From assembly GCA_964452165.1 (NCBI GenBank), contig CAYVKP010000002.1, positions 24,074 through 88,073 of the forward strand: a DNA stretch of 64,000 bases, given 5' to 3'. Position 1 is the first letter of the stretch. Every line of letters starts with the position of its first letter. Of the stretch, positions 2,804-37,368 are shown one piece after another. The DNA is from an uncultured Gammaproteobacteria bacterium. GTDB lineage: Bacteria; Patescibacteriota; Microgenomatia; Levybacterales; GWA1-39-11. The position numbers and the translations under genes were made by a program. Under the pieces are notes generated by a model. That model was not told where the DNA came from, searched no databases, and was given only the letters and a program-made list of their open reading frames with translations.

Positions 2804-3304
2804 TTATTCAGTTTTGGTGAGGACTTTGTGGGCGCGGCGGCGTTTTGTTCGCTTTCTAAAATTCTCTGACAAAACGCTGATGTTTCCGTCGAGCTCTAAA
2901 ATTGCCAGGTCTACGTCCGCAATATTCTTTACTCCATGCTCGCGAACAACGGCATCCAGCTCGTCGTGCGAGATTTTTGCCTTATTGAGGTTTGCCGTTA
3001 TCTCTTTTCCTTCATAAATTAACATTAAAGCGTGGCCCTGAAAAAAAGCGGAAAAGCGGGCAGATTTATAGAAGAGAGTACCAAAAATGAAGTTTATGAC
3101 AAAAAGAGAAGCTGCGGCAATAAGTCCGCCAAGAAGAGAAGTGTTGTCCCCAACCATTGCGTTTTGAACAGCGTTTGAGATTAAAAGGATAAAGACAAGA
3201 TCGGTAATTGAGAGTTGCGCTATCTCGCGCTTTCCAAAAAGCCGGATAGCAACAACTATAAATACGTAGACCGCAACGGTTCTGATTAAGATCGGCAACA
3301 TCAT
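2804..3304 (-). CDS. DUF421/YetF-like membrane protein
   Basis: 166 aa. N-terminal TM helices with the ...GKREIAQLSITDLVFILLISNAV... motif characteristic of the YetF/DUF421 family. Confidence 0.7.
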   Translation of the reverse strand: MMLPILIRTVAVYVFIVVAIRLFGKREIAQLSITDLVFILLISNAVQNAMVGDNTSLLGGLIAAASLFVINFIFGTLFYKSARFSAFFQGHALMLIYEGKEITANLNKAKISHDELDAVVREHGVKNIADVDLAILELDGNISVLSENFRKRTKRRRAHKVLTKTE

Positions 3305-3319
3305 ATTTTCATTATACTC

Positions 3320-4117
3320 TTATCCTATAGAGCTTTGTGAAGCGCCTGTTTCAGCTTTTGTTTCAGTGCGTTTTTTAATCTCTTTTTTCCTCATTTTAGT
3401 TTTTGGCTGCTTGGGTTGGCCGGTTTTTCTACCCACGGGCTGTTCAAAAGACTCGGCCATTTCTTGTTCTTTGTCTTGTTTTTTCCTTAGTTCTTCTTCT
3501 TCCACCTCTTGCCTCGATGTTTTTATATTCGGATTTTCTCTTTTGACTCCGTACTGATTGACCTCGGCACGTTGATCTTGAGCGGCCATTTGGATTTGTT
3601 CGGCAGAGACGTTAGTCGTAAGTTTTTTATTATTAAAAACATTTACAACCGGGGCTTTTTGTTTTTCGTGCGAACCGAAAATCTGTTCTCCAATCTCGCT
3701 TTTAGACTTGGGAGTAGAATCGGCAGGACGCGCAATATCCTCAATGTTTTTACCGCGAAGCAAATCAGCATTCAAGTTTTGCGCGTTATCTTCTCCCGCG
3801 CCGGCGGGCTTTTGCACGTCTTCGACGTTTGCTCCTGACAAAAGTTTTGAATTAAGGTCGTGCGCTTCGTGAGTTGACTGGTCGGCCTTGCCAAGCCCTG
3901 CAATTTGTCCGAGTTCACGGACAATATCGGACTCTTTTTGAGGGACTGACTTTTCTCCCTCCGCAGCTTTTTTTACGGCATCATCTGTTGGAATGTCTGC
4001 GCCAAAAGCTTGCCTCATAAAATCTTCACCGGTATCGTTGACGGTATCAACAACTGCTTTTTTTGTCTCTCTGAATGGCGCCTCCAGAACATTTATTAAG
4101 GTTTTTTTTACGGACAT
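3320..4117 (-). CDS. hypothetical low-complexity, highly charged protein
   Basis: 265-aa ORF rich in K, E, D and Q with no hydrophobic segments. Likely intrinsically disordered. No family recognised. Confidence 0.5.
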   Translation of the reverse strand: MSVKKTLINVLEAPFRETKKAVVDTVNDTGEDFMRQAFGADIPTDDAVKKAAEGEKSVPQKESDIVRELGQIAGLGKADQSTHEAHDLNSKLLSGANVEDVQKPAGAGEDNAQNLNADLLRGKNIEDIARPADSTPKSKSEIGEQIFGSHEKQKAPVVNVFNNKKLTTNVSAEQIQMAAQDQRAEVNQYGVKRENPNIKTSRQEVEEEELRKKQDKEQEMAESFEQPVGRKTGQPKQPKTKMRKKEIKKRTETKAETGASQSSIG

Positions 4118-4238: not shown

Positions 4239-5381
4239 ATGAAGAGTAGGAATCTAATAATTCTCGTCTTGGTTTTAATCGCAGCCCTTTTGGTGCTTAA
4301 AGGAATAGGAAGATTTCTACCCACGGCAGTTGCTCCAAAAAATGTAGCACCCGTATTAAATAACTTTAAGATTTCAGGACAAGAGTCCGTAGTTGATGTT
4401 GTCAAGGCCGTCGGCCCCTCAGTCGTCACGGTAGGCGCACAAGCTCAACCACAAAGCAGAAATTCTCAAAATGATCCTTTCGGATTTTTCTTTGATACTC
4501 CCCAGGCCCCACCGCCTTCTGATAACAACCAGACGGAGGATTATATAGGTAGTGGATTTGTTGTAGATTCCGCCGGCACAATTGTCACAAACAAGCACGT
4601 CGTTTCAGATTCAAGTCTTAAATATATCATCGTCGATTCTAAGGGCAATAAATACACCGTCTCAAATATTTACCGAGATCCATTGAATGATATAGCAATT
4701 CTTAAGGTTTCAAATCCTCCAAGCGGAGGATTTACGCAAGTTTCTTTTGGAGACTCAGACAAACTTGAAGTAGGGCAGTTTGCAATTGCAATTGGTACGG
4801 CGCTTGGACAATTTCGCAATACTGTAACAACTGGCGTTATCTCGGGTCTGGGCCGCGGAATCTCTGCGGGTTCACCCTTTGAAGGTTTTGTAGAACAGCT
4901 TGACAATGTAATCCAGACTGATGCGGCAATCAATCCCGGAAACTCCGGCGGACCGCTTCTCAACGCCGCAGGACAAGTTATTGGGATAAATACCGCTGTT
5001 GCATCCCAGGGTCAAAATATTGGTTTCGCGATTCCAATAAAAATTGTTAAGCAGTCTTTGGATGAGTTCAACAAGACCGGTCAATTCAACCGGCCATTCC
5101 TTGGTGTTTCTTACGTACTAATCAGCAGAAACGCGGCAATTATGAATGATCTGCCGGAAGGAGCATTGGTTAGAGATATTGTAAGCGGGTCCGCAGCGGA
5201 TCGTGCGGGCGTTAAGATAGATGACATAATCACCAAAATTGATGGACAAAAATTGACAACTGAAAACACACTTGCCACAATTGTCGCGAAGAAAAAAGTA
5301 GGAGACAGTGTCTCTTTGACCGTTTGGCGGGATAGTAAAACTATAGATCTTAAGGCCTCTTTGGGACAAGTCACTCAATAG
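4239..5381 (+). CDS. htrA: HtrA/DegP-family serine protease with a PDZ domain
   Basis: N-terminal signal anchor, a trypsin-like catalytic domain (…GNSGGPL… with the His/Asp/Ser triad context) and a C-terminal PDZ domain. The ORF-track start at 4203 is a TTG; the first ATG (MKSRNLIIL...) is at 4239. Confidence 0.85.
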   Translation: MKSRNLIILVLVLIAALLVLKGIGRFLPTAVAPKNVAPVLNNFKISGQESVVDVVKAVGPSVVTVGAQAQPQSRNSQNDPFGFFFDTPQAPPPSDNNQTEDYIGSGFVVDSAGTIVTNKHVVSDSSLKYIIVDSKGNKYTVSNIYRDPLNDIAILKVSNPPSGGFTQVSFGDSDKLEVGQFAIAIGTALGQFRNTVTTGVISGLGRGISAGSPFEGFVEQLDNVIQTDAAINPGNSGGPLLNAAGQVIGINTAVASQGQNIGFAIPIKIVKQSLDEFNKTGQFNRPFLGVSYVLISRNAAIMNDLPEGALVRDIVSGSAADRAGVKIDDIITKIDGQKLTTENTLATIVAKKKVGDSVSLTVWRDSKTIDLKASLGQVTQ

Positions 5382-5423
5382 TCTGCAGCTCACCCTATAA
5401 TATAGTTGGTCAGCCTCCTGTTA

Positions 5424-5432
5424 TGCTATAAT
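5424..5432 (+). promoter_or_regulatory. putative extended -10 promoter element (TGCTATAAT) upstream of the GC-rich cassette
   Basis: Perfect TGnTATAAT in the 325-bp AT-rich spacer between htrA and the cassette. A second TATAAT lies at 5394-5399. The -35 match is weak. Confidence 0.3.
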
Positions 5433-5568
5433 CAGGCTACATTTGGAGCAATTTTCGGCGTTTGCATGCTGGATTTTTGTTCGAGGTGTTTCTTTAAACT
5501 TCTTTGCACATTAACAAGCTATTCAGTTTAAAAAATCTTCATCATAGGTGGAGCAGTGGACTTCAGTT

Positions 5569-5602
5569 AAATTCCAAAATCCAAATTCCAAATCTCAAAT
5601 TG
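5569..5602. repeat. short tandem repeat, 14-bp unit x ~2.4 (AAATTCCAAAATCC / AAATTCCAAATCTC / AAATTG)
   Basis: Direct tandem copies visible in the intergenic leader of the cassette. Confidence 0.4.
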
Positions 5603-5706
5603 TTCGAAAATTGGTGCTTGGCTATTGAAAATTACAAACTGAAGTTTGTTGTTCCATCTGTGATGGAAAATAAAAATTTGCTCAGTGCGAGCAGAAAGAA
5701 GGGTAC

Positions 5707-5916
5707 ATGAATATGGTTATTGGTTTAACCGCTGTGTTTGCCTTTGGGGTTCTGTTTCTGTGGTTTGGAACCACGGGCGGTGTGCTCAAGCAAACAGGCG
5801 ATGCATCAAGAGCCAAGATCTTTGGAGTCGCGTTTTGCGCGATCTCCCTAGCTCTGGGAGCTCTTAGCCTTATTGTCCCGCAACTCGGATGGTTATCCGA
5901 ACAAGTCTCATCCTGA
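5707..5916 (+). CDS. small membrane protein (69 aa, 2 TM), first gene of the GC-rich cassette
   Basis: Preceded by a short hairpin (TGCTC-AGTGC-GAGCA) and the SD AGAAAGAAGGG. Two hydrophobic helices. GC content well above the genome background. Confidence 0.55.
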   Translation: MNMVIGLTAVFAFGVLFLWFGTTGGVLKQTGDASRAKIFGVAFCAISLALGALSLIVPQLGWLSEQVSS

Positions 5917-5926
5917 GGAGGATGGA

Positions 5927-6211
5927 GTGAAAACATTCGCCAAGCTTGCCTCGGGGCTGCTGCTCATCGCGTATGCGATCAGAGTCGTGGTTCTCGCAGT
6001 AGGGGAGACTTTTCGTCAGGAAGACGAAGAGCCATGGATGCCCCACACAAAACTGCTCACGACATTTCCCGTGCGCATGGTAACGGCTGTGCTTTTGGAT
6101 ATAGTCCAGCTGCGCGACAAGATTCGTGAGCTCAAGAACTCGCCCCCAATGATGATTCTGCTCACCTACAACGACGCCGTAACTCGTGACATTCCCGAAC
6201 GTCGGGACTAG
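5927..6211 (+). CDS. small membrane-anchored protein (~94 aa), cassette gene 2
   Basis: A GTG start 5 nt after the SD GAGGAGG, which overlaps the stop of gene 1. The ORF-track version beginning at 5873 would overlap gene 1. One N-terminal TM helix. Confidence 0.5.
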   Translation: MKTFAKLASGLLLIAYAIRVVVLAVGETFRQEDEEPWMPHTKLLTTFPVRMVTAVLLDIVQLRDKIRELKNSPPMMILLTYNDAVTRDIPERRD

Positions 6212-6240
6212 CCCTCGTCAAAAAAACGAGGAGAGAAAGG
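6209..6240 (+). promoter_or_regulatory. conserved intergenic motif, copy 1: stop codon, hairpin and SD (TAGCCCTCGTCAAAAAAACGAGGAGAGAAAGG)
   Basis: The CCTCGT/ACGAGG stem, with a 7-nt A-rich loop, partly sequesters the AGGAG SD. The motif is near-identical to copy 2. Confidence 0.45.
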
Positions 6241-6249
6241 GAACGCGAA

Positions 6250-6543
6250 ATGAAGCTCATCAAGTTCGTCGTCGGGGCTCTATTGGGATCCTACATCGGT
6301 GCGTCGGCTGTTGAGGCCTATCGAGAAGCCGAAAAGGACAAGAAGGGAGCCCCTTGGGATGGTGACATCCAGAAGGTTCCAACGGCGGGTCTTGCTGTGA
6401 TCGTTCTCGTCTTTAATATTGTCGGCGATATCCTGGACTTCTCCGAAGAAGTGCTTGATACAATAGACAATATTGGTCACGTGGGATCTCGGCCACTCAG
6501 TCCGCCCAAATACCGTCGAACCAGACCGTACAGGGTCAGTTAG
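6250..6543 (+). CDS. small membrane protein (97 aa), cassette gene 3
   Basis: ATG preceded by a conserved stop-hairpin-SD motif. N-terminal and central hydrophobic helices. Confidence 0.55.
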   Translation: MKLIKFVVGALLGSYIGASAVEAYREAEKDKKGAPWDGDIQKVPTAGLAVIVLVFNIVGDILDFSEEVLDTIDNIGHVGSRPLSPPKYRRTRPYRVS

Positions 6544-6571
6544 CCCTCGCCTGAAAACGAGGAGAGAAAGG
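6541..6571 (+). promoter_or_regulatory. conserved intergenic motif, copy 2 (TAGCCCTCGCCTGAAAACGAGGAGAGAAAGG)
   Basis: Same architecture as copy 1 (CCTCG/CGAGG stem, with the SD in the 3' arm). 30 of 32 positions are conserved with copy 1. Confidence 0.45.
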
Positions 6572-6579
6572 TAAAGCTC

Positions 6580-7011
6580 ATGGTCCCCGCCAAGAAGCTA
6601 CTCGCGTTCATCGTTACCGCAGCGGCCTTTACGGTCGTCATGCTTGCGGTGCTTTTGGTGCCAGCAAGACTAGACAGCGCTGCGCCCTCACGGGTTGATA
6701 GCGCGGCTGCGCTCGAGCAAGGTCCGCCACCTACACCGATTCCCGCTCTAGCCAGCGTTGAAGAGGTAGTGAAGTACCTTGAAGAGTATCTGGGCCGTAG
6801 CGTTAAGGTTGAATGGAGTGGTCTTGACGAACGTAAGGACGGAGGAAAGCTAGGAGTTCAGTTCACGCTGGAACCGCGCGATCCCATGTTCTATGCAAGG
6901 TGTACGCACCCGGCTGCGGCTGTGTCAGAACTGCCGTGTAGCTTCGAGGGCCCGTACTATCCCACGCCAAGGTTTCGATTCGCTGACCCCGCACCCGTTG
7001 CAGACAGATAA
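6580..7011 (+). CDS. secreted or membrane-anchored Pro/Ala-rich protein (143 aa), cassette gene 4
   Basis: N-terminal signal peptide or TM segment (LLAFIVTAAAFTVVMLAVLLVPA), an internal repeat ARLDSAAPSRVDSAAAL, and a PPPTPIP linker. Composition resembles high-GC organisms. Confidence 0.55.
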   Translation: MVPAKKLLAFIVTAAAFTVVMLAVLLVPARLDSAAPSRVDSAAALEQGPPPTPIPALASVEEVVKYLEEYLGRSVKVEWSGLDERKDGGKLGVQFTLEPRDPMFYARCTHPAAAVSELPCSFEGPYYPTPRFRFADPAPVADR

Positions 7012-7031
7012 CCAGGAAGGAGAATAACGCT

Positions 7032-7295
7032 ATGTTTCCTCTGATCTTCGTGGTCTTGATAGCCGCCGGAGTGCTTCTTGCCGTTTTCGTGATGGCACGA
7101 CACGTTTACCGACGAAACAAGGCGGATAAAGCCCTCATCAGGTTTCGAGAGTGGAACTCGGGTAATGTACCCCTTCCTTCTCGCAGAACGGTCGATAACA
7201 GGTTCGAGGAGCTTCATCCGGGATACATCAGCGCGGAGCTGCATGATCTAAGGCATGAAATCCTGCATAAGATCAACGCACAGCGCCGTAGCTAG
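7032..7295 (+). CDS. small membrane protein (87 aa, one N-terminal TM), cassette gene 5
   Basis: SD AGGAAGGAG at 8 nt upstream. A hydrophobic N-terminus followed by a basic cytoplasmic tail. Confidence 0.5.
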   Translation: MFPLIFVVLIAAGVLLAVFVMARHVYRRNKADKALIRFREWNSGNVPLPSRRTVDNRFEELHPGYISAELHDLRHEILHKINAQRRS

Positions 7296-7323
7296 CCAGA
7301 TCTTCTGAGTAGAGAGGAGTACG

Positions 7324-7416
7324 ATGGAAAAAGCCATTATCATCGGGATTCTGTTTGTAGGATTCTGGACCGCGATCTCAATCGCCCAGCACTTCACGGA
7401 CAAGAAGCCCGCGTAG
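7324..7416 (+). CDS. micro-ORF, 30-aa single-TM peptide (MEKAIIIGILFVGFWTAISIAQHFTDKKPA), cassette gene 6
   Basis: SD AGAGGAG at 6 nt upstream. Below the ORF-track size cut-off. Fits the tight spacing of the cassette. Confidence 0.35.
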   Translation: MEKAIIIGILFVGFWTAISIAQHFTDKKPA

Positions 7417-7442
7417 TTCTGCCGCAGAGAGGAAGCAAGATC

Positions 7443-7721
7443 GTGCGCTTAGCTCTAGGGCTCATCCTCATCCTGGTCGGCATCGGAATTTTCTTACTCG
7501 GACCTGTTCTGTTTAGGGAGTGGTTCAAGAGAACACCTCAAAACGTCAAGTCAGGTCTGTTATGGTTGAATCCGATGCTAGTCTTGGTAGGTATCTGGGT
7601 GATTTTCGAACCTCCAGACGTTCTTGTGATAGTCGGGATGGTTTCGATGTGCATACTCGGAGTTCGGAACTTACTCAAGAGAGCTGTATTGCCTGAGTAC
7701 CACCAGGTTAAAACTGAATAG
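7443..7721 (+). CDS. small membrane protein (92 aa, ~3 TM), cassette gene 7
   Basis: GTG start with the SD AGAGGAAG. Strongly hydrophobic. The stop is embedded in the 12-bp palindrome TAGCGATCGCTA. Confidence 0.5.
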   Translation: MRLALGLILILVGIGIFLLGPVLFREWFKRTPQNVKSGLLWLNPMLVLVGIWVIFEPPDVLVIVGMVSMCILGVRNLLKRAVLPEYHQVKTE

Positions 7722-7774
7722 CGATCGCTAAATGCGGTGCAAAGAATTACGGGCTCGAGGAAGAGCAAGATCAG

Positions 7775-7909
7775 ATGAACTGTGGGGACATGCGTCTTCA
7801 CTTTACGCTTCATGCGTATTCATTTCTTCTTTCTTTTCTTCGGGCCCTTTTTCTTGACTATTGTTTTTTAGGCCTCAATTTTGTATCATTACGTTTGATC
7901 CTCGCATAA
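7775..7909 (+). CDS. possible micro-ORF (44 aa, hydrophobic) at the distal edge of the GC-rich island
   Basis: ATG preceded by GAGGAAG. Spans the GC to AT transition. Speculative. Confidence 0.2.
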   Translation: MNCGDMRLHFTLHAYSFLLSFLRALFLDYCFLGLNFVSLRLILA

Positions 7910-7924
7910 AGCGGGAAATTTTTT

Positions 7925-8200
7925 ATGAGAAACTATCAATTGGTATTAGTTTTAAAATCAGATTTAAAAAAAGATCAAAAAGAAAAATTATTTAGCGACG
8001 TCAAAGCCTGGGTAGGGGAGACCAAGAATGACAAGATGGAATCCCTGGGTGAGAAAAAGTTTGCCTACCCAATAAAATCAGCCCGTAAAGGCGAATACGT
8101 AGTCATGTCTTTTGATACTGAAAAAGTGGACAACGATCTTAACAAGAAGCTTTTAATAAGAGATGAAATTTTGCGACACCTTCTCGTTAGAACAAATTAA
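7925..8200 (+). CDS. rpsF: 30S ribosomal protein S6
   Basis: 91 aa. MRNYQLVLVLKSDL..., a typical S6 N-terminus. Begins the conserved rpsF-ssb-rpsR arrangement. Confidence 0.9.
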   Translation: MRNYQLVLVLKSDLKKDQKEKLFSDVKAWVGETKNDKMESLGEKKFAYPIKSARKGEYVVMSFDTEKVDNDLNKKLLIRDEILRHLLVRTN

Positions 8201-14272: not shown

Positions 14273-15607
14273 ATGGCAGGACAAAGAATTCCCCCACATA
14301 GTGAGGAAGCAGAACAGGCGGTACTCGGTGCAATTCTCATTGATCATGAGGCAATAAATTCTGTTGTTCAAATTGTAAAAGCAGGCTTTTTTTATAATGG
14401 TCGCAATAAATTAATTTTTGAGACAATGGTTTCGCTATACGAGGAGAGAAAACCAATTGATCTTCTTACTTTAACCCATGCCCTCAAAAAAAAGAAAATA
14501 TATGAGGATGTTGGAGGATCCGAATATCTGACATCTCTTGCGTCTGCTGTCCCAACGGCTGCCAACATTGAGCATTATGCTCAAATTCTTAAGGAAGCAT
14601 ACATTCGTCGGTCACTCGTGACAATTGCTGCCAACATGACAGATCTTTCTTTTTCTGAGGATAAACCCTCGGGAGAACTTCTTGATACCGTTGAACAGAC
14701 AATATTTTCCATTTCTCAGGAAAATGTAAAGCAGGGGTTTGTTCACGTTAAAGATGCTCTTGCGGAAAGCTTCGATAAGCTAGACGAGCTTCATAAGAGG
14801 CAATCTGCTTACCGCGGGATCGAGACGGGATTTGTAGATTTGGATCTTCTCTTGTCGGGTCTTCAGGATTCAAACCTTATAGTTTTGGCCGCGCGTCCGG
14901 GACAAGGAAAAACCGCCTTTGTTATTAATATTGCCCAGCACATTTCAACAGTTAATAAAATTCCCGTAGGTGTTTTTTCACTTGAAATGAGCAAGGAGGA
15001 GCTTGTTGATCGTTTGCTTATTTCACAAGCAAATATCGACGCCTGGAAACTCAAGACAGGTAAACTGTCAGATGATGATTTTGAAAAACTGTCATCTGCA
15101 ATGGGAGAACTGGCTGAATCCCCTATATTTATAGATGATACTCCGGGAATTTCGATAGCCGAGATAAGAAGCAAGGCAAGACGCCTTCAGATGGAACACG
15201 GAATGAAAATGTTAATAGTCGATTATCTTCAGCTCATAAATCCGGGGAGACGTTTTGAAAATCGCGTGCAGGAGGTTACATATATATCTACCTCGCTTAA
15301 AAATTTAGCTCGTGAACTTAAAATCCCAGTTCTTGCCGTTTCTCAGCTTTCACGTGCAGTAGAGCATAGAGGAGAGCGAAAGCCACAACTTGCGGATCTT
15401 CGTGAATCGGGATCAATCGAACAGGACGCAGACGTTGTTATGTTTCTCTACACAAAAGACGAGGAATTTACCCCGCAAAGAATTGTTAGTATTAACATTG
15501 CAAAACATAGAAATGGCCCAGTTGGCGAACGGGAGCTTCTTTTCCGCGGAGACAGAATTAAATTCTTCAATATTGAACACACGCAGACGGAAGCGACTGC
15601 AAACTAA
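14273..15607 (+). CDS. dnaB: replicative DNA helicase
   Basis: 444 aa. A DnaB N-terminal domain (EAEQAVLGAILID) plus a RecA-like C-terminus with a Walker A (GARPGQGKTAF) motif. Confidence 0.95.
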   Translation: MAGQRIPPHSEEAEQAVLGAILIDHEAINSVVQIVKAGFFYNGRNKLIFETMVSLYEERKPIDLLTLTHALKKKKIYEDVGGSEYLTSLASAVPTAANIEHYAQILKEAYIRRSLVTIAANMTDLSFSEDKPSGELLDTVEQTIFSISQENVKQGFVHVKDALAESFDKLDELHKRQSAYRGIETGFVDLDLLLSGLQDSNLIVLAARPGQGKTAFVINIAQHISTVNKIPVGVFSLEMSKEELVDRLLISQANIDAWKLKTGKLSDDDFEKLSSAMGELAESPIFIDDTPGISIAEIRSKARRLQMEHGMKMLIVDYLQLINPGRRFENRVQEVTYISTSLKNLARELKIPVLAVSQLSRAVEHRGERKPQLADLRESGSIEQDADVVMFLYTKDEEFTPQRIVSINIAKHRNGPVGERELLFRGDRIKFFNIEHTQTEATAN

Positions 15608-36853: not shown

Positions 36854-37368
36854 TATTTATAATTTGCCATGCCTTTCTCAACTTCCGCAATGGCTTCTGC
36901 CGCGCCTTTCCAACCACTGACTTTAACCCATTTCCCGGGTTCGTTCTTTTTGTAATTCTCAAAGAAATATTTTATCTTATCTGTAATTTCGGCTGGGAGT
37001 TCGCTTATATCGTTGTACTTTCCAAACTCCGGGTTAACTTTTTCCGGTGGAACGGCGACCAGCTTTGCGTCTTGCCCGGATTCATCTTCTGTTTCAAGCA
37101 TTCCGATTGGCTTTGCTACCATCACTACTCCCGGTGTGACGGGTAAGGGTGATAAGACTAGAACATCAACCGGATCTCCATCTCCACTTAAAGTATTTGG
37201 AATAAATCCGTAATTTGCCGGATATCCTTTGTCAAAAAACAAAAAACGATCAACAAAAATCGCTTCGGTATCGTGATCGACTTCGTACTTTACTCTTGAA
37301 TCGAGTGGAACTTCAATTACTACGTTTACAATTTGAGGGGCTTTGTCCCCCGCTGTTAAATTCTTCAT
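36853..37368 (-). CDS. ppa: inorganic pyrophosphatase (family I)
   Basis: 171 aa. …DGDPVDVLV… signature. Confidence 0.9.

Follow-up and report, generated by a model that had tools for sequence, protein, structure and literature searches.

Near-identical stop-hairpin-Shine-Dalgarno linkers between orphan micro-genes in a variable htrA-rpsF island of Levybacteria-like Patescibacteria

Two intergenic spacers in a small-gene island of an uncultivated Patescibacteria genome (Levybacteria-like; its HtrA homologues carry Patescibacteria or Levybacteria names) are almost identical, and spacers of the same architecture recur in different islands at the same locus of related genomes. The island lies between htrA and rpsF in a stretch of 64,000 nt of contig CAYVKP010000002.1, here called the window. 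It contains seven small genes, and the two spacers, J2 ahead of gene 3 and J3 ahead of gene 4, each combine the upstream gene's stop codon with a short hairpin and a long purine-rich Shine-Dalgarno (SD) tract. The related islands carry this linker architecture between other genes, one of them with a partly homologous module. By this recurrence, duplicated stop-hairpin-SD spacers are a property of an island family and not an accident of one duplication. As to function, we tentatively favour a translation module that is portable between cistrons and couples them by RNA unfolding, a reading that we consider possible, though short of probable.

The first linker copy reads TAGCCCTCG-TCAAAAAAA-CGAGGAGAGAAAGG (6209-6240, ahead of the gene 3 ATG at 6250), and the second reads TAGCCCTCG-CCTGAAAA-CGAGGAGAGAAAGG (6541-6571, ahead of the gene 4 ATG at 6580). 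Laid out in full, J2 is TAG(6209)CCCTCG-TCAAAAAAA-CGAGGAGAGAAAGG-GAACGCGAA-ATG(6250) and J3 is TAG(6541)CCCTCG-CCTGAAAA-CGAGGAGAGAAAGG-TAAAGCTC-ATG(6580), with stop-to-start spacings of +38 and +36 nt. Two blocks are common to them, TAGCCCTCG with 9/9 and ACGAGGAGAGAAAGG with 15/15 identical positions, and both were returned by a repeat finder. The 15-mer ACGAGGAGAGAAAGG occurs exactly twice in the 64 kb; when up to two mismatches are allowed, 0.12 matches are expected by chance, and none of 100 shuffles reached the observed count. A sequence-only reading of this DNA had called the spacers before genes 3 and 4 near-identical, which these blocks bear out far beyond chance. Similarity sets in at the stop codon and fades 3-4 nt ahead of the start codon, and the coding DNA that flanks J2 and J3 on either side is unalignable (z about 0). 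By hand count the copies differ at none of 23 stop, arm and SD positions and at 9 of 18 loop and tail positions, a clustering with a probability of C(18,9)/C(41,9) = 1.4e-4 under a uniform spread of differences. Constraint or recent homogenisation must therefore have acted on J2 and J3, precisely where the stem and the ribosome-binding tract are formed. The pattern TAGCCCTCG-N6-10-CGAGGAGAGAAAGG has no match in viral contigs. A 20-base version of the motif has 15 single matches in representative genomes and 20 in metagenomes, from unrelated taxa; none of them has the TAG or tail context and none comes in two copies, and they were set aside as chance matches. A motif match at 14439 lies inside a coding region and was discarded as irrelevant.

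The island interrupts a conserved gene order, hisS-DUF421-x-htrA-rpsF-ssb-rpsR-ctpB-cysS. Among the related loci, the htrA-rpsF gap measures just 55-236 nt in L039, L040, L045 (where it is partly masked), L046/L047 and L051. In L041, L043, L044 and L048-L050 other islands fill it, measuring 1.1 to 1.8 kb or more and containing different tiny SD-led open reading frames (ORFs), mostly membrane and orphan. The htrA-rpsF interval spans 5382-7924 in the window, 6132-7237 in L041, 2741-4188 in L043, 5159-7003 in L044 and 3007-4072 in L049. This site is a hot spot, occupied by different islands in half of the sampled relatives.

Within these islands the linkers are duplicated as well. L041 J2 (TAAtcttGTCGCaactGCGGCGGAAAGG) and J3 (TAGtcttGCCGCaataGCGGCGGAAAGG) are identical at 24 of 28 positions (z 11). 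L043 and L044 share the string CCGC-loop-GCGG-ATTAGCTCTC-n-AAGGAG at two junctions each (L043 J1/J3, L044 J1/J2); L043 J1 and L044 J1 agree at 35 of 40 positions (z 13.8), and the genes on both sides of them are unrelated (z about 0). A further form, TAG-n-CTGC-loop-GCAG-AGAAAG..., is found in L044 (6262), L049 (3183) and L043 (4144), and these three copies, like J2 and J3 of the window, have a single nucleotide between stop and stem. Window J2 and L049 J0 share AGAGAAAGG(G)AACG (z 5.3). The linker motifs are confined to the islands and to the coding strand, and the type-A linker pattern has no match in viral contigs. Neither window J7 and the type-A linkers nor window J0 and L049 J0 showed significant homology. 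As side observations, TAG ends five of the seven island genes of the window (6209, 6541, 7293, 7414, 7719), often as TAGCC, and related linkers keep the TAG even where no upstream ORF was called (L049 3183).

The hairpins of J2 and J3 have 5-6 bp and start 1 nt past the TAG stop, with the 5' arm occupying positions +5 to +10, counted from the T of the stop. Folded as bare elements they have z-scores of -2.1 and -2.0, respectively. For J3 an alternative two-tier fold of -8.6 kcal/mol adds GCC 6543-6545 paired with GGU 6570-6572. Partition-function folding was run at 15-50 C. At 25, 37 and 42 C, the temperatures at which the sequence-only reading had proposed to examine the fold, the CGAGG bases of both linkers were paired with a probability >0.9, and the predictions do show stable pairing of the distal part of the SD. 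That part, GGAG within GAGGAG, has a pairing probability of 0.74 in J2 as against 0.32 with the upstream part shuffled (2 of 200 shuffles reach 0.74), and of 0.67 in J3 as against 0.49 (36 of 200 reach 0.67). The other box of this two-box tract, the start-proximal AGAAAGG, lies outside the simple hairpin; in an 89-nt context of J3 the GG of its AAAGG is about 90% paired, the partner being the GCC just past the stop codon. The proposal that the stem pairs an upstream arm with the SD holds for the distal GGAG, 15-16 nt from the ATG. A related hairpin had also been claimed before gene 1, and it is present (5677-5695, -8.0 kcal/mol, z -2.3), likewise abutting an SD tract. Before the first genes this layout is found in the J0 of the window, L041, L044 and L049, and a short hairpin abutting the SD tract appears from the predicted folds to be the general feature of the linkers.

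Six TAG-proximal hairpins from the window and the related islands were aligned by hand. In this alignment 90% of the cells pair, which is reached by 2 of 500 shuffles and compares with 28-50% in slid controls. The two inner pairs are CG/GC in the window and GC/CG elsewhere. The alignment is at most suggestive of covariation in the linker stem. In the stem of L041 J2 a C-to-U change retains a G.U pair.

Known RNA classes do not account for the linkers. No Rfam family matched at its gathering score in the window, and at E<=1 the region 5300-8000 gave a single match, a spurious microRNA outside the spacers; window scans for a tRNA or a known RNA family matched none at the linkers. An intrinsic terminator or attenuator was rejected: both stems precede purines and not a U-tract, and the terminator scan was empty at 6209-6249 and 6541-6579 on either strand. 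RNA thermometers such as ROSE and fourU resemble the linkers in that a hairpin pairs with SD bases, and the sequence-only reading had accordingly raised a thermometer or a hairpin titrated by a protein. Pairing of the distal GGAG would suit either, as would the conservation of both sequence and structure between the copies. The stems, however, consist exclusively of Watson-Crick pairs, lack the mismatches and G.U pairs that let thermometers melt, stay shut between 25 and 42 C, have no Rfam match and are intercistronic, not in a 5' untranslated region; these results argue against the thermometer. For a protein operator, the loops, which are usually contacted by the protein, are the least conserved part, and there is no candidate RNA-binding protein, since the island proteins all resemble small membrane proteins. 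We consider a thermometer or a titrating operator very improbable.

In the explanation that we favour, the linker, consisting of a stop codon, a short G+C hairpin 1 nt past it and the long purine-rich SD tract (GAGGAG, AGAAAGG), would string unrelated tiny membrane-protein genes into one operon. The pyrimidine arm CCCUCG would act as a mimic of the anti-SD and pair with the distal GGAG or, shifted to another register, with the two Gs in the proximal AAAGG. From the textbook ribosome footprint, positions +5 to +10 from the stop are inside the mRNA channel of a terminating ribosome, and the arm, which occupies these positions, therefore falls within that channel. A ribosome terminating on the TAG would hold the arm there, the hairpin would be opened and the SD tract freed. 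Initiation would then follow 36-38 nt downstream, and translation of genes 3 and 4 would keep pace with that of genes 2 and 3. The repeat, its fold and geometry, the island and the recurring linkers of related islands are observed; that the RNA hairpin is present in vivo and restrains initiation until termination relieves it is inferred. The upstream strand lies within reach of the terminating ribosome in J2, J3 and three related copies.

RNA-unfolding coupling, as in rpmI-rplT and atpH-atpA of E. coli, coat-lysis of phage MS2 and genes VII-IX of phage f1, is the known system closest in working. It shares a structure at the downstream ribosome-binding site (RBS) with its upstream strand where the finishing ribosome must sit. 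The model is established and includes rpmI-rplT at a spacing of +52 nt, to which the 36-38 nt found here are comparable (PMC12548453). The linkers differ in that the upstream strand is just past the stop codon and not inside the upstream gene, that firm pairing is predicted for just the distal one of two SD boxes, and that a single linker sequence serves several junctions and recurs in other genomes.

Several results weigh against coupling as the function of the linkers. In about 60 nt of context the fold z-scores are +0.3 for J2 and +0.1 for J3, no better than those of shuffles, and because of these values the two hairpins are best regarded as real but weak; the linker hairpins have energies of -5 to -8.6 kcal/mol. 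The proximal AGAAAGG of J2 is mostly unpaired, so that any occlusion in J2 is partial. In an SD-masking test over 19 junctions, the pairing of the hexamer that best matches the anti-SD was compared with shuffles of the sequence upstream, and the summed SD pairing equalled the shuffled expectation (z 0.19). SD occlusion as a common design of all junctions was rejected by this control; masking would be particular to some junctions, clear in J2 and weak in J3. The sequence-only suggestion that partial occlusion of the SD means translational control consequently survives in part: pairing of the distal GGAG in J2 and J3 makes some translational role plausible, and the wider set of junctions shows no such tendency. 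In the nearest relatives of the two linkers, L044 6262 and L049 3183, the hairpin excludes the SD. The J0 of L049 and that of the window have the hairpin and SD layout without an upstream ORF, and coupling therefore cannot be the hairpin's sole role. The 3' end of the host 16S rRNA, with which the SD tract would pair, is not within the window. The covariation is based on six sequences and probably reflects one event. Their alignment was built to fit the structure; given longer segments, MAFFT favours a register that aligns the GGAG of the window with GCAG. Finally, in a library screen, structure just past the stop codon correlated negatively with coupling (PMC12548453).

The presence of a hairpin abutting the SD in all module types, also before the first genes where coupling is impossible, would suit mRNA punctuation or stability. 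The hairpin would then guard processed cistron ends from exonucleases or mark a cleavage site, as a 3' barrier for the upstream cistron and, with the SD, a 5' stabiliser for the downstream one, and discrete or differentially stable mRNAs would result. Two linker copies have GAAA tetraloops, the hairpins have no U-tract and hence are not terminators, and the island transcript is heavily structured: a leader hairpin of about 30 bp (z -5.4) and the 5'/3' inverted-repeat blocks (-28.8 kcal/mol, z -6.4) would suit processing of the RNase III type. REP/BIME intercistronic palindromes and Gram-positive 5' stabilisers (cryIIIA STAB-SD), which affect mRNA stability, resemble the linkers in being short palindromes just past stops in operons or, close to a processed 5' end, a hairpin or SD-like box. 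REPs have hundreds of genome-wide copies and stronger stems; the linkers are found within the island only and are joined to an SD that looks functional. For an exonuclease barrier, however, a stem of 4-6 bp (-5 to -8 kcal/mol) is small, and conservation reaches past the stem to TAGCC and to the 13-nt purine tract. A role in mRNA processing or stability seems to us somewhat unlikely.

That the linkers are conserved beside unrelated genes (L043 J1 and L044 J1 above) and are duplicated within each of four islands could also point to joints at the DNA level, short sites of homology or structure at which mini-gene cassettes swap, duplicate or get deleted. The two copies in the window would reflect insertion or duplication of gene 3, and the SD would be what any joint between genes needs. 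At this fixed locus close relatives differ in island content and the site is empty in five genomes; in the window, the gene 7 RBS region has an additional copy with a doubtful ORF after it. The layout is reminiscent of chromosomal integron arrays (attC/VCR), which likewise have co-oriented small strain-variable ORFs with hairpin repeats between them at a fixed site and a promoter (putative here) at one end. Against such joints, no recombinase was found within about 5 kb at any locus by Pfam annotation of the neighbours; an integron integrase is absent among the neighbours at the window and related loci, the rest of the 64-kb window not having been scanned for integrases. The elements, of 28-45 nt as against 55-141 nt for attC, have neither the attC core sites (GTTRRRY/RYYYAAC) nor R''/R' cores, and an attC site was rejected for J2 and J3, whose spacers of 36-38 nt contain no GTT or AAC core. 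Each linker, unlike attC, carries the RBS of the next gene. The identical blocks, of 9 and 15 nt, are short substrates for homologous recombination; every copy runs in the orientation of the genes and ends at a start codon, and the G.U pair of L041 J2 fits RNA and not DNA. We hold a cassette joint to be unlikely. A leftover of tandem duplication of gene plus spacer without any special function, with genes 2 and 3 as diverged paralogues and the spacer as a strong RBS under ordinary selection, is improbable in our view. The two genes are alike in length and layout (BLASTP E 0.052 over 82 amino acids), among 21 pairs within the window they score highest (z 2.7), and gene 2 is similar to L043 gene b too (z 4.3, the top score in 171 pairs of island ORFs, among which similarity is marginal at best). 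Their paralogy is suggestive at most and fails multiple testing; their coding DNA is saturated while the arms, stop and SD agree at 23/23 positions, about 5 nt and not 15 plus 9 are what an RBS alone needs, and the same phenomenon occurs in other islands with unrelated genes.

The start-associated sequences (SAS) and extended SAS (ESAS) of Cluster K mycobacteriophages are closest to the linkers in pattern. SAS is a 13-bp sequence, GGGATAGGAGCCC, with an SD core, of unknown function and thought to be translational; half of the copies have an inverted repeat just upstream, and the upstream stop is sometimes inside the repeat (PMC3203893). The ESAS arms are 17 bp long and do not show compensation of the RNA type (PMC3203893). 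Both are asymmetric, conserved repeats, always in gene orientation, with an SD core a few nt before the starts of unrelated genes; with unrelated flanks, such repeats are found in J2/J3 of the window, J2/J3 of L041, and J1/J3 of L043 together with J1/J2 of L044. The linkers differ by stems of 4-6 bp that start at the stop codon and by their place in a chromosomal Patescibacteria island, not a phage. Their sequence differs from SAS and has no match in viral contigs or a phage collection.

The features of the island are collected in Table 1. It is the sole compositional island in the window, with a G+C content of 0.52-0.57 over about 5700-7750 as against about 0.41 elsewhere. Its seven co-oriented ORFs encode 30-143 amino acids, most with hydrophobic helices, and a purine-rich SD lies 4-9 nt before each of them. 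The ORFs show the coding-type order of G+C at the three codon positions (GC1 > GC2 < GC3), with a GC3 of 0.49-0.73 (0.55-0.73 for genes 2-7) compared with 0.33-0.38 in host genes. The island proteins have no significant match in Pfam or PHROGs and were singletons in a cluster look-up. Genes 3 and 4 found only the query itself in a word-indexed search of 5.8 billion proteins, as did gene 4 in an exhaustive phmmer search of 1.84 billion cluster representatives, and the whole island has no blastn match in the phage collection. As the cassette genes are orphans, no homologous cassette can be used for comparison. The sole island protein with a recognisable domain is encoded in L044 (6028-6264, 78 amino acids), a stand-alone Lrp/AsnC ligand-binding (RAM) domain (PF01037, E 6e-14). 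The htrA and rpsF junctions of the island were reproduced in independent assemblies of two other sequencing runs, and the island is therefore not a chimera. It looks foreign and is strain-variable, and in the favoured explanation it is horizontally acquired.

Table 1. Coordinates of the island, its genes and its linker elements in the window
Feature	Position	Strand	Description
J2 linker	6209..6249	+	gene 2 TAG stop, hairpin, purine-rich SD tract and tail; ends at gene 3 ATG
J3 linker	6541..6579	+	gene 3 TAG stop, hairpin, SD tract and tail; ends at gene 4 ATG
J2 hairpin	6213..6231	+	arms CCTCGT 6213-6218 / ACGAGG 6226-6231, loop 6219-6225; -8.1 kcal/mol
J3 hairpin	6545..6562	+	arms CCTCG 6545-6549 / CGAGG 6558-6562, loop 6550-6557
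J2 SD tract GAGGAGAGAAAGG	6228..6240	+	distal GAGGAG 16 nt and proximal AGAAAGG 9 nt from ATG
J3 SD tract GAGGAGAGAAAGG	6559..6571	+	distal GAGGAG 15 nt and proximal AGAAAGG 8 nt from ATG
Island	5382..7856	+	htrA stop to conserved rpsF promoter region; about 2.4 kb; missing in five related genomes, other islands in its place in four
TGCTATAAT	5424..5432	+	extended -10-like box, putative promoter; equivalent in left part of all five islands
IR-L	5500..5529	+	TTCTTTGCAC (5500-5509), 8 nt, GCTATTCAGTTT (5518-5529)
Leader hairpin	5538..5668	+	about 30 bp with several G.U pairs; stem 5538-5568 with 5637-5667
J0	5677..5703	+	7-bp hairpin (5677-5683 with 5689-5695), then directly AAAGAAGGG before gene 1
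Gene 1	5707..5916	+	69 aa, 2 predicted membrane helices, orphan
J1	5909..5924	+	hairpin CAUCCU-GAGG-AGGAUG across gene 1 TGA stop (5914-5916) and gene 2 SD
Gene 2	5927..6211	+	94 aa, GTG start after GAGGAGGA, orphan
Gene 3	6250..6543	+	97 aa, orphan, between two linker copies
Gene 4	6580..7011	+	143 aa, orphan
Gene 5	7032..7295	+	87 aa, orphan
Gene 6	7324..7416	+	30 aa, one hydrophobic helix
J6	7414..7442	+	degenerate relative TAGTTCTGCCGCAGAGAGGAAG; no stable hairpin (-2.1 kcal/mol)
Gene 7	7443..7721	+	92 aa, membrane protein, orphan
IR-R	7711..7746	+	AAACTGAATAGC (7711-7722), 14 nt, GTGCAAAGAA (7737-7746); inverted partner of IR-L
Gene 7 RBS repeat GAGGAAGAGCAAGATCAGATG	7755..7777	+	second copy of gene 7 RBS region 7427-7445

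At the left of all five islands (window, L041, L043, L044, L049) there is a TGnTATAAT box, and the left parts also share GCGTTTGCATG and CTTTGCACATT; a right-end string, AAAACTGAATAGCG, is common to the window and L044. The leader of the window (5438-5712) folds at -83 kcal/mol (z -5.4), and its long stem contains G.U pairs and therefore works solely as plus-strand RNA. L043 has an unrelated leader hairpin that is equally strong (2888-2940, -36 kcal/mol, z -4.6), with a counterpart in L044 at 5406-5465, and no Rfam family matches the leader hairpins. The loop of the window's leader hairpin contains a tandem 14-nt AT-rich repeat, AAATTCCAAAATCC / AAATTCCAAATCTC, at 5569-5596. A two-block inverted repeat (IR-L/IR-R) brackets the cassette. 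In L049 the inverted repeat is GTTTCGCAC ... TCTATTCGGTT (3141-3169 and 3782-3809), with substitutions mirrored in both arms; as an RNA duplex the arms of L049 reach -30.5 kcal/mol (z -7.7), those of the window having the value given above. L044 has an inverted repeat at about 5368-5400 and 6715-6825, its right copy split by about 70 nt. Candidate roles are pairing between the 5' and 3' parts of the operon mRNA, a protein-binding site or recombination sites. Transposon ends are unlikely, as the promoter box and GCGTTTGCATG lie outside IR-L and are missing from the empty sites. A palindrome, GCGATCGC, is found at 7721-7728 directly past the gene 7 stop codon.

Past gene 7 its RBS region, GAGGAAGCAAGATCGTG, recurs as GAGGAAGAGCAAGATCAGATG, ahead of a 44-amino-acid ORF (7775-7909). 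This doubtful ORF has a host-like GC3 and extends into the rpsF promoter; the repeat at 7755-7777 and the ORF are probably a relic joint and not a gene. Gene 5 (region 7014-7046) and L043 gene d (region 3938-3975) have the same in-frame start, TTTCCTCTGA (F-P-L), directly after AAGGAG. Its pyrimidine run is predicted to pair back onto the SD, and it could be a downstream mimic of the anti-SD or merely a common N-terminus.

The translation signals of the host are of another kind. A strong SD precedes 1 of 58 long host ORFs in the window, that of an inorganic pyrophosphatase (36856-37368, minus strand), in contrast to all seven island genes. At least 12 host genes have TATAAT 5-9 nt before the ATG (e.g. 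starts 16521, 24206, 29167, 31112 and 34277; further examples from the same survey are 39985, 44164, 59304 and 61726), and a TATAAT this near the ATG suggests that leaderless mRNAs are widespread in the host. AGAAAGG is the complement of CCUUUCU, a 16S tail that Bacillus, for instance, has, and with a 16S tail of CCUCCUUUCU it would be a strong SD.

On a wider view, the htrA-rpsF islands of Levybacteria-like Patescibacteria may represent a previously undescribed cassette system, which we rate as quite unlikely. In such a system unrelated micro-genes would be assembled and exchanged via standard stop-hairpin-SD linkers, in a heavily structured transcript bracketed by inverted repeats. Since the host initiates almost without SD sequences, the SD-rich linkers could restrict translation of the island to certain conditions or to ribosomes with an exposed anti-SD. 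bS6 and bS18, the products of rpsF and rpsR, help to hide the anti-SD in Bacteroidota ribosomes; the island lies directly upstream of rpsF and rpsR.

Were the hairpins neutral, the linkers would merely be a curiosity of one island family. They provide a sequence tag with which more such islands can be found. If the favoured explanation is true, the linker would be a natural standard part that supplies a stop, insulation or coupling, and an RBS to any small gene placed between two copies, in a candidate phyla radiation setting where the host's own genes largely lack SD sites. It would give a handle on how foreign SD-dependent genes get expressed in SD-poor or leaderless hosts, and on how hypervariable islands of micro-protein genes are put together in uncultivated episymbionts.

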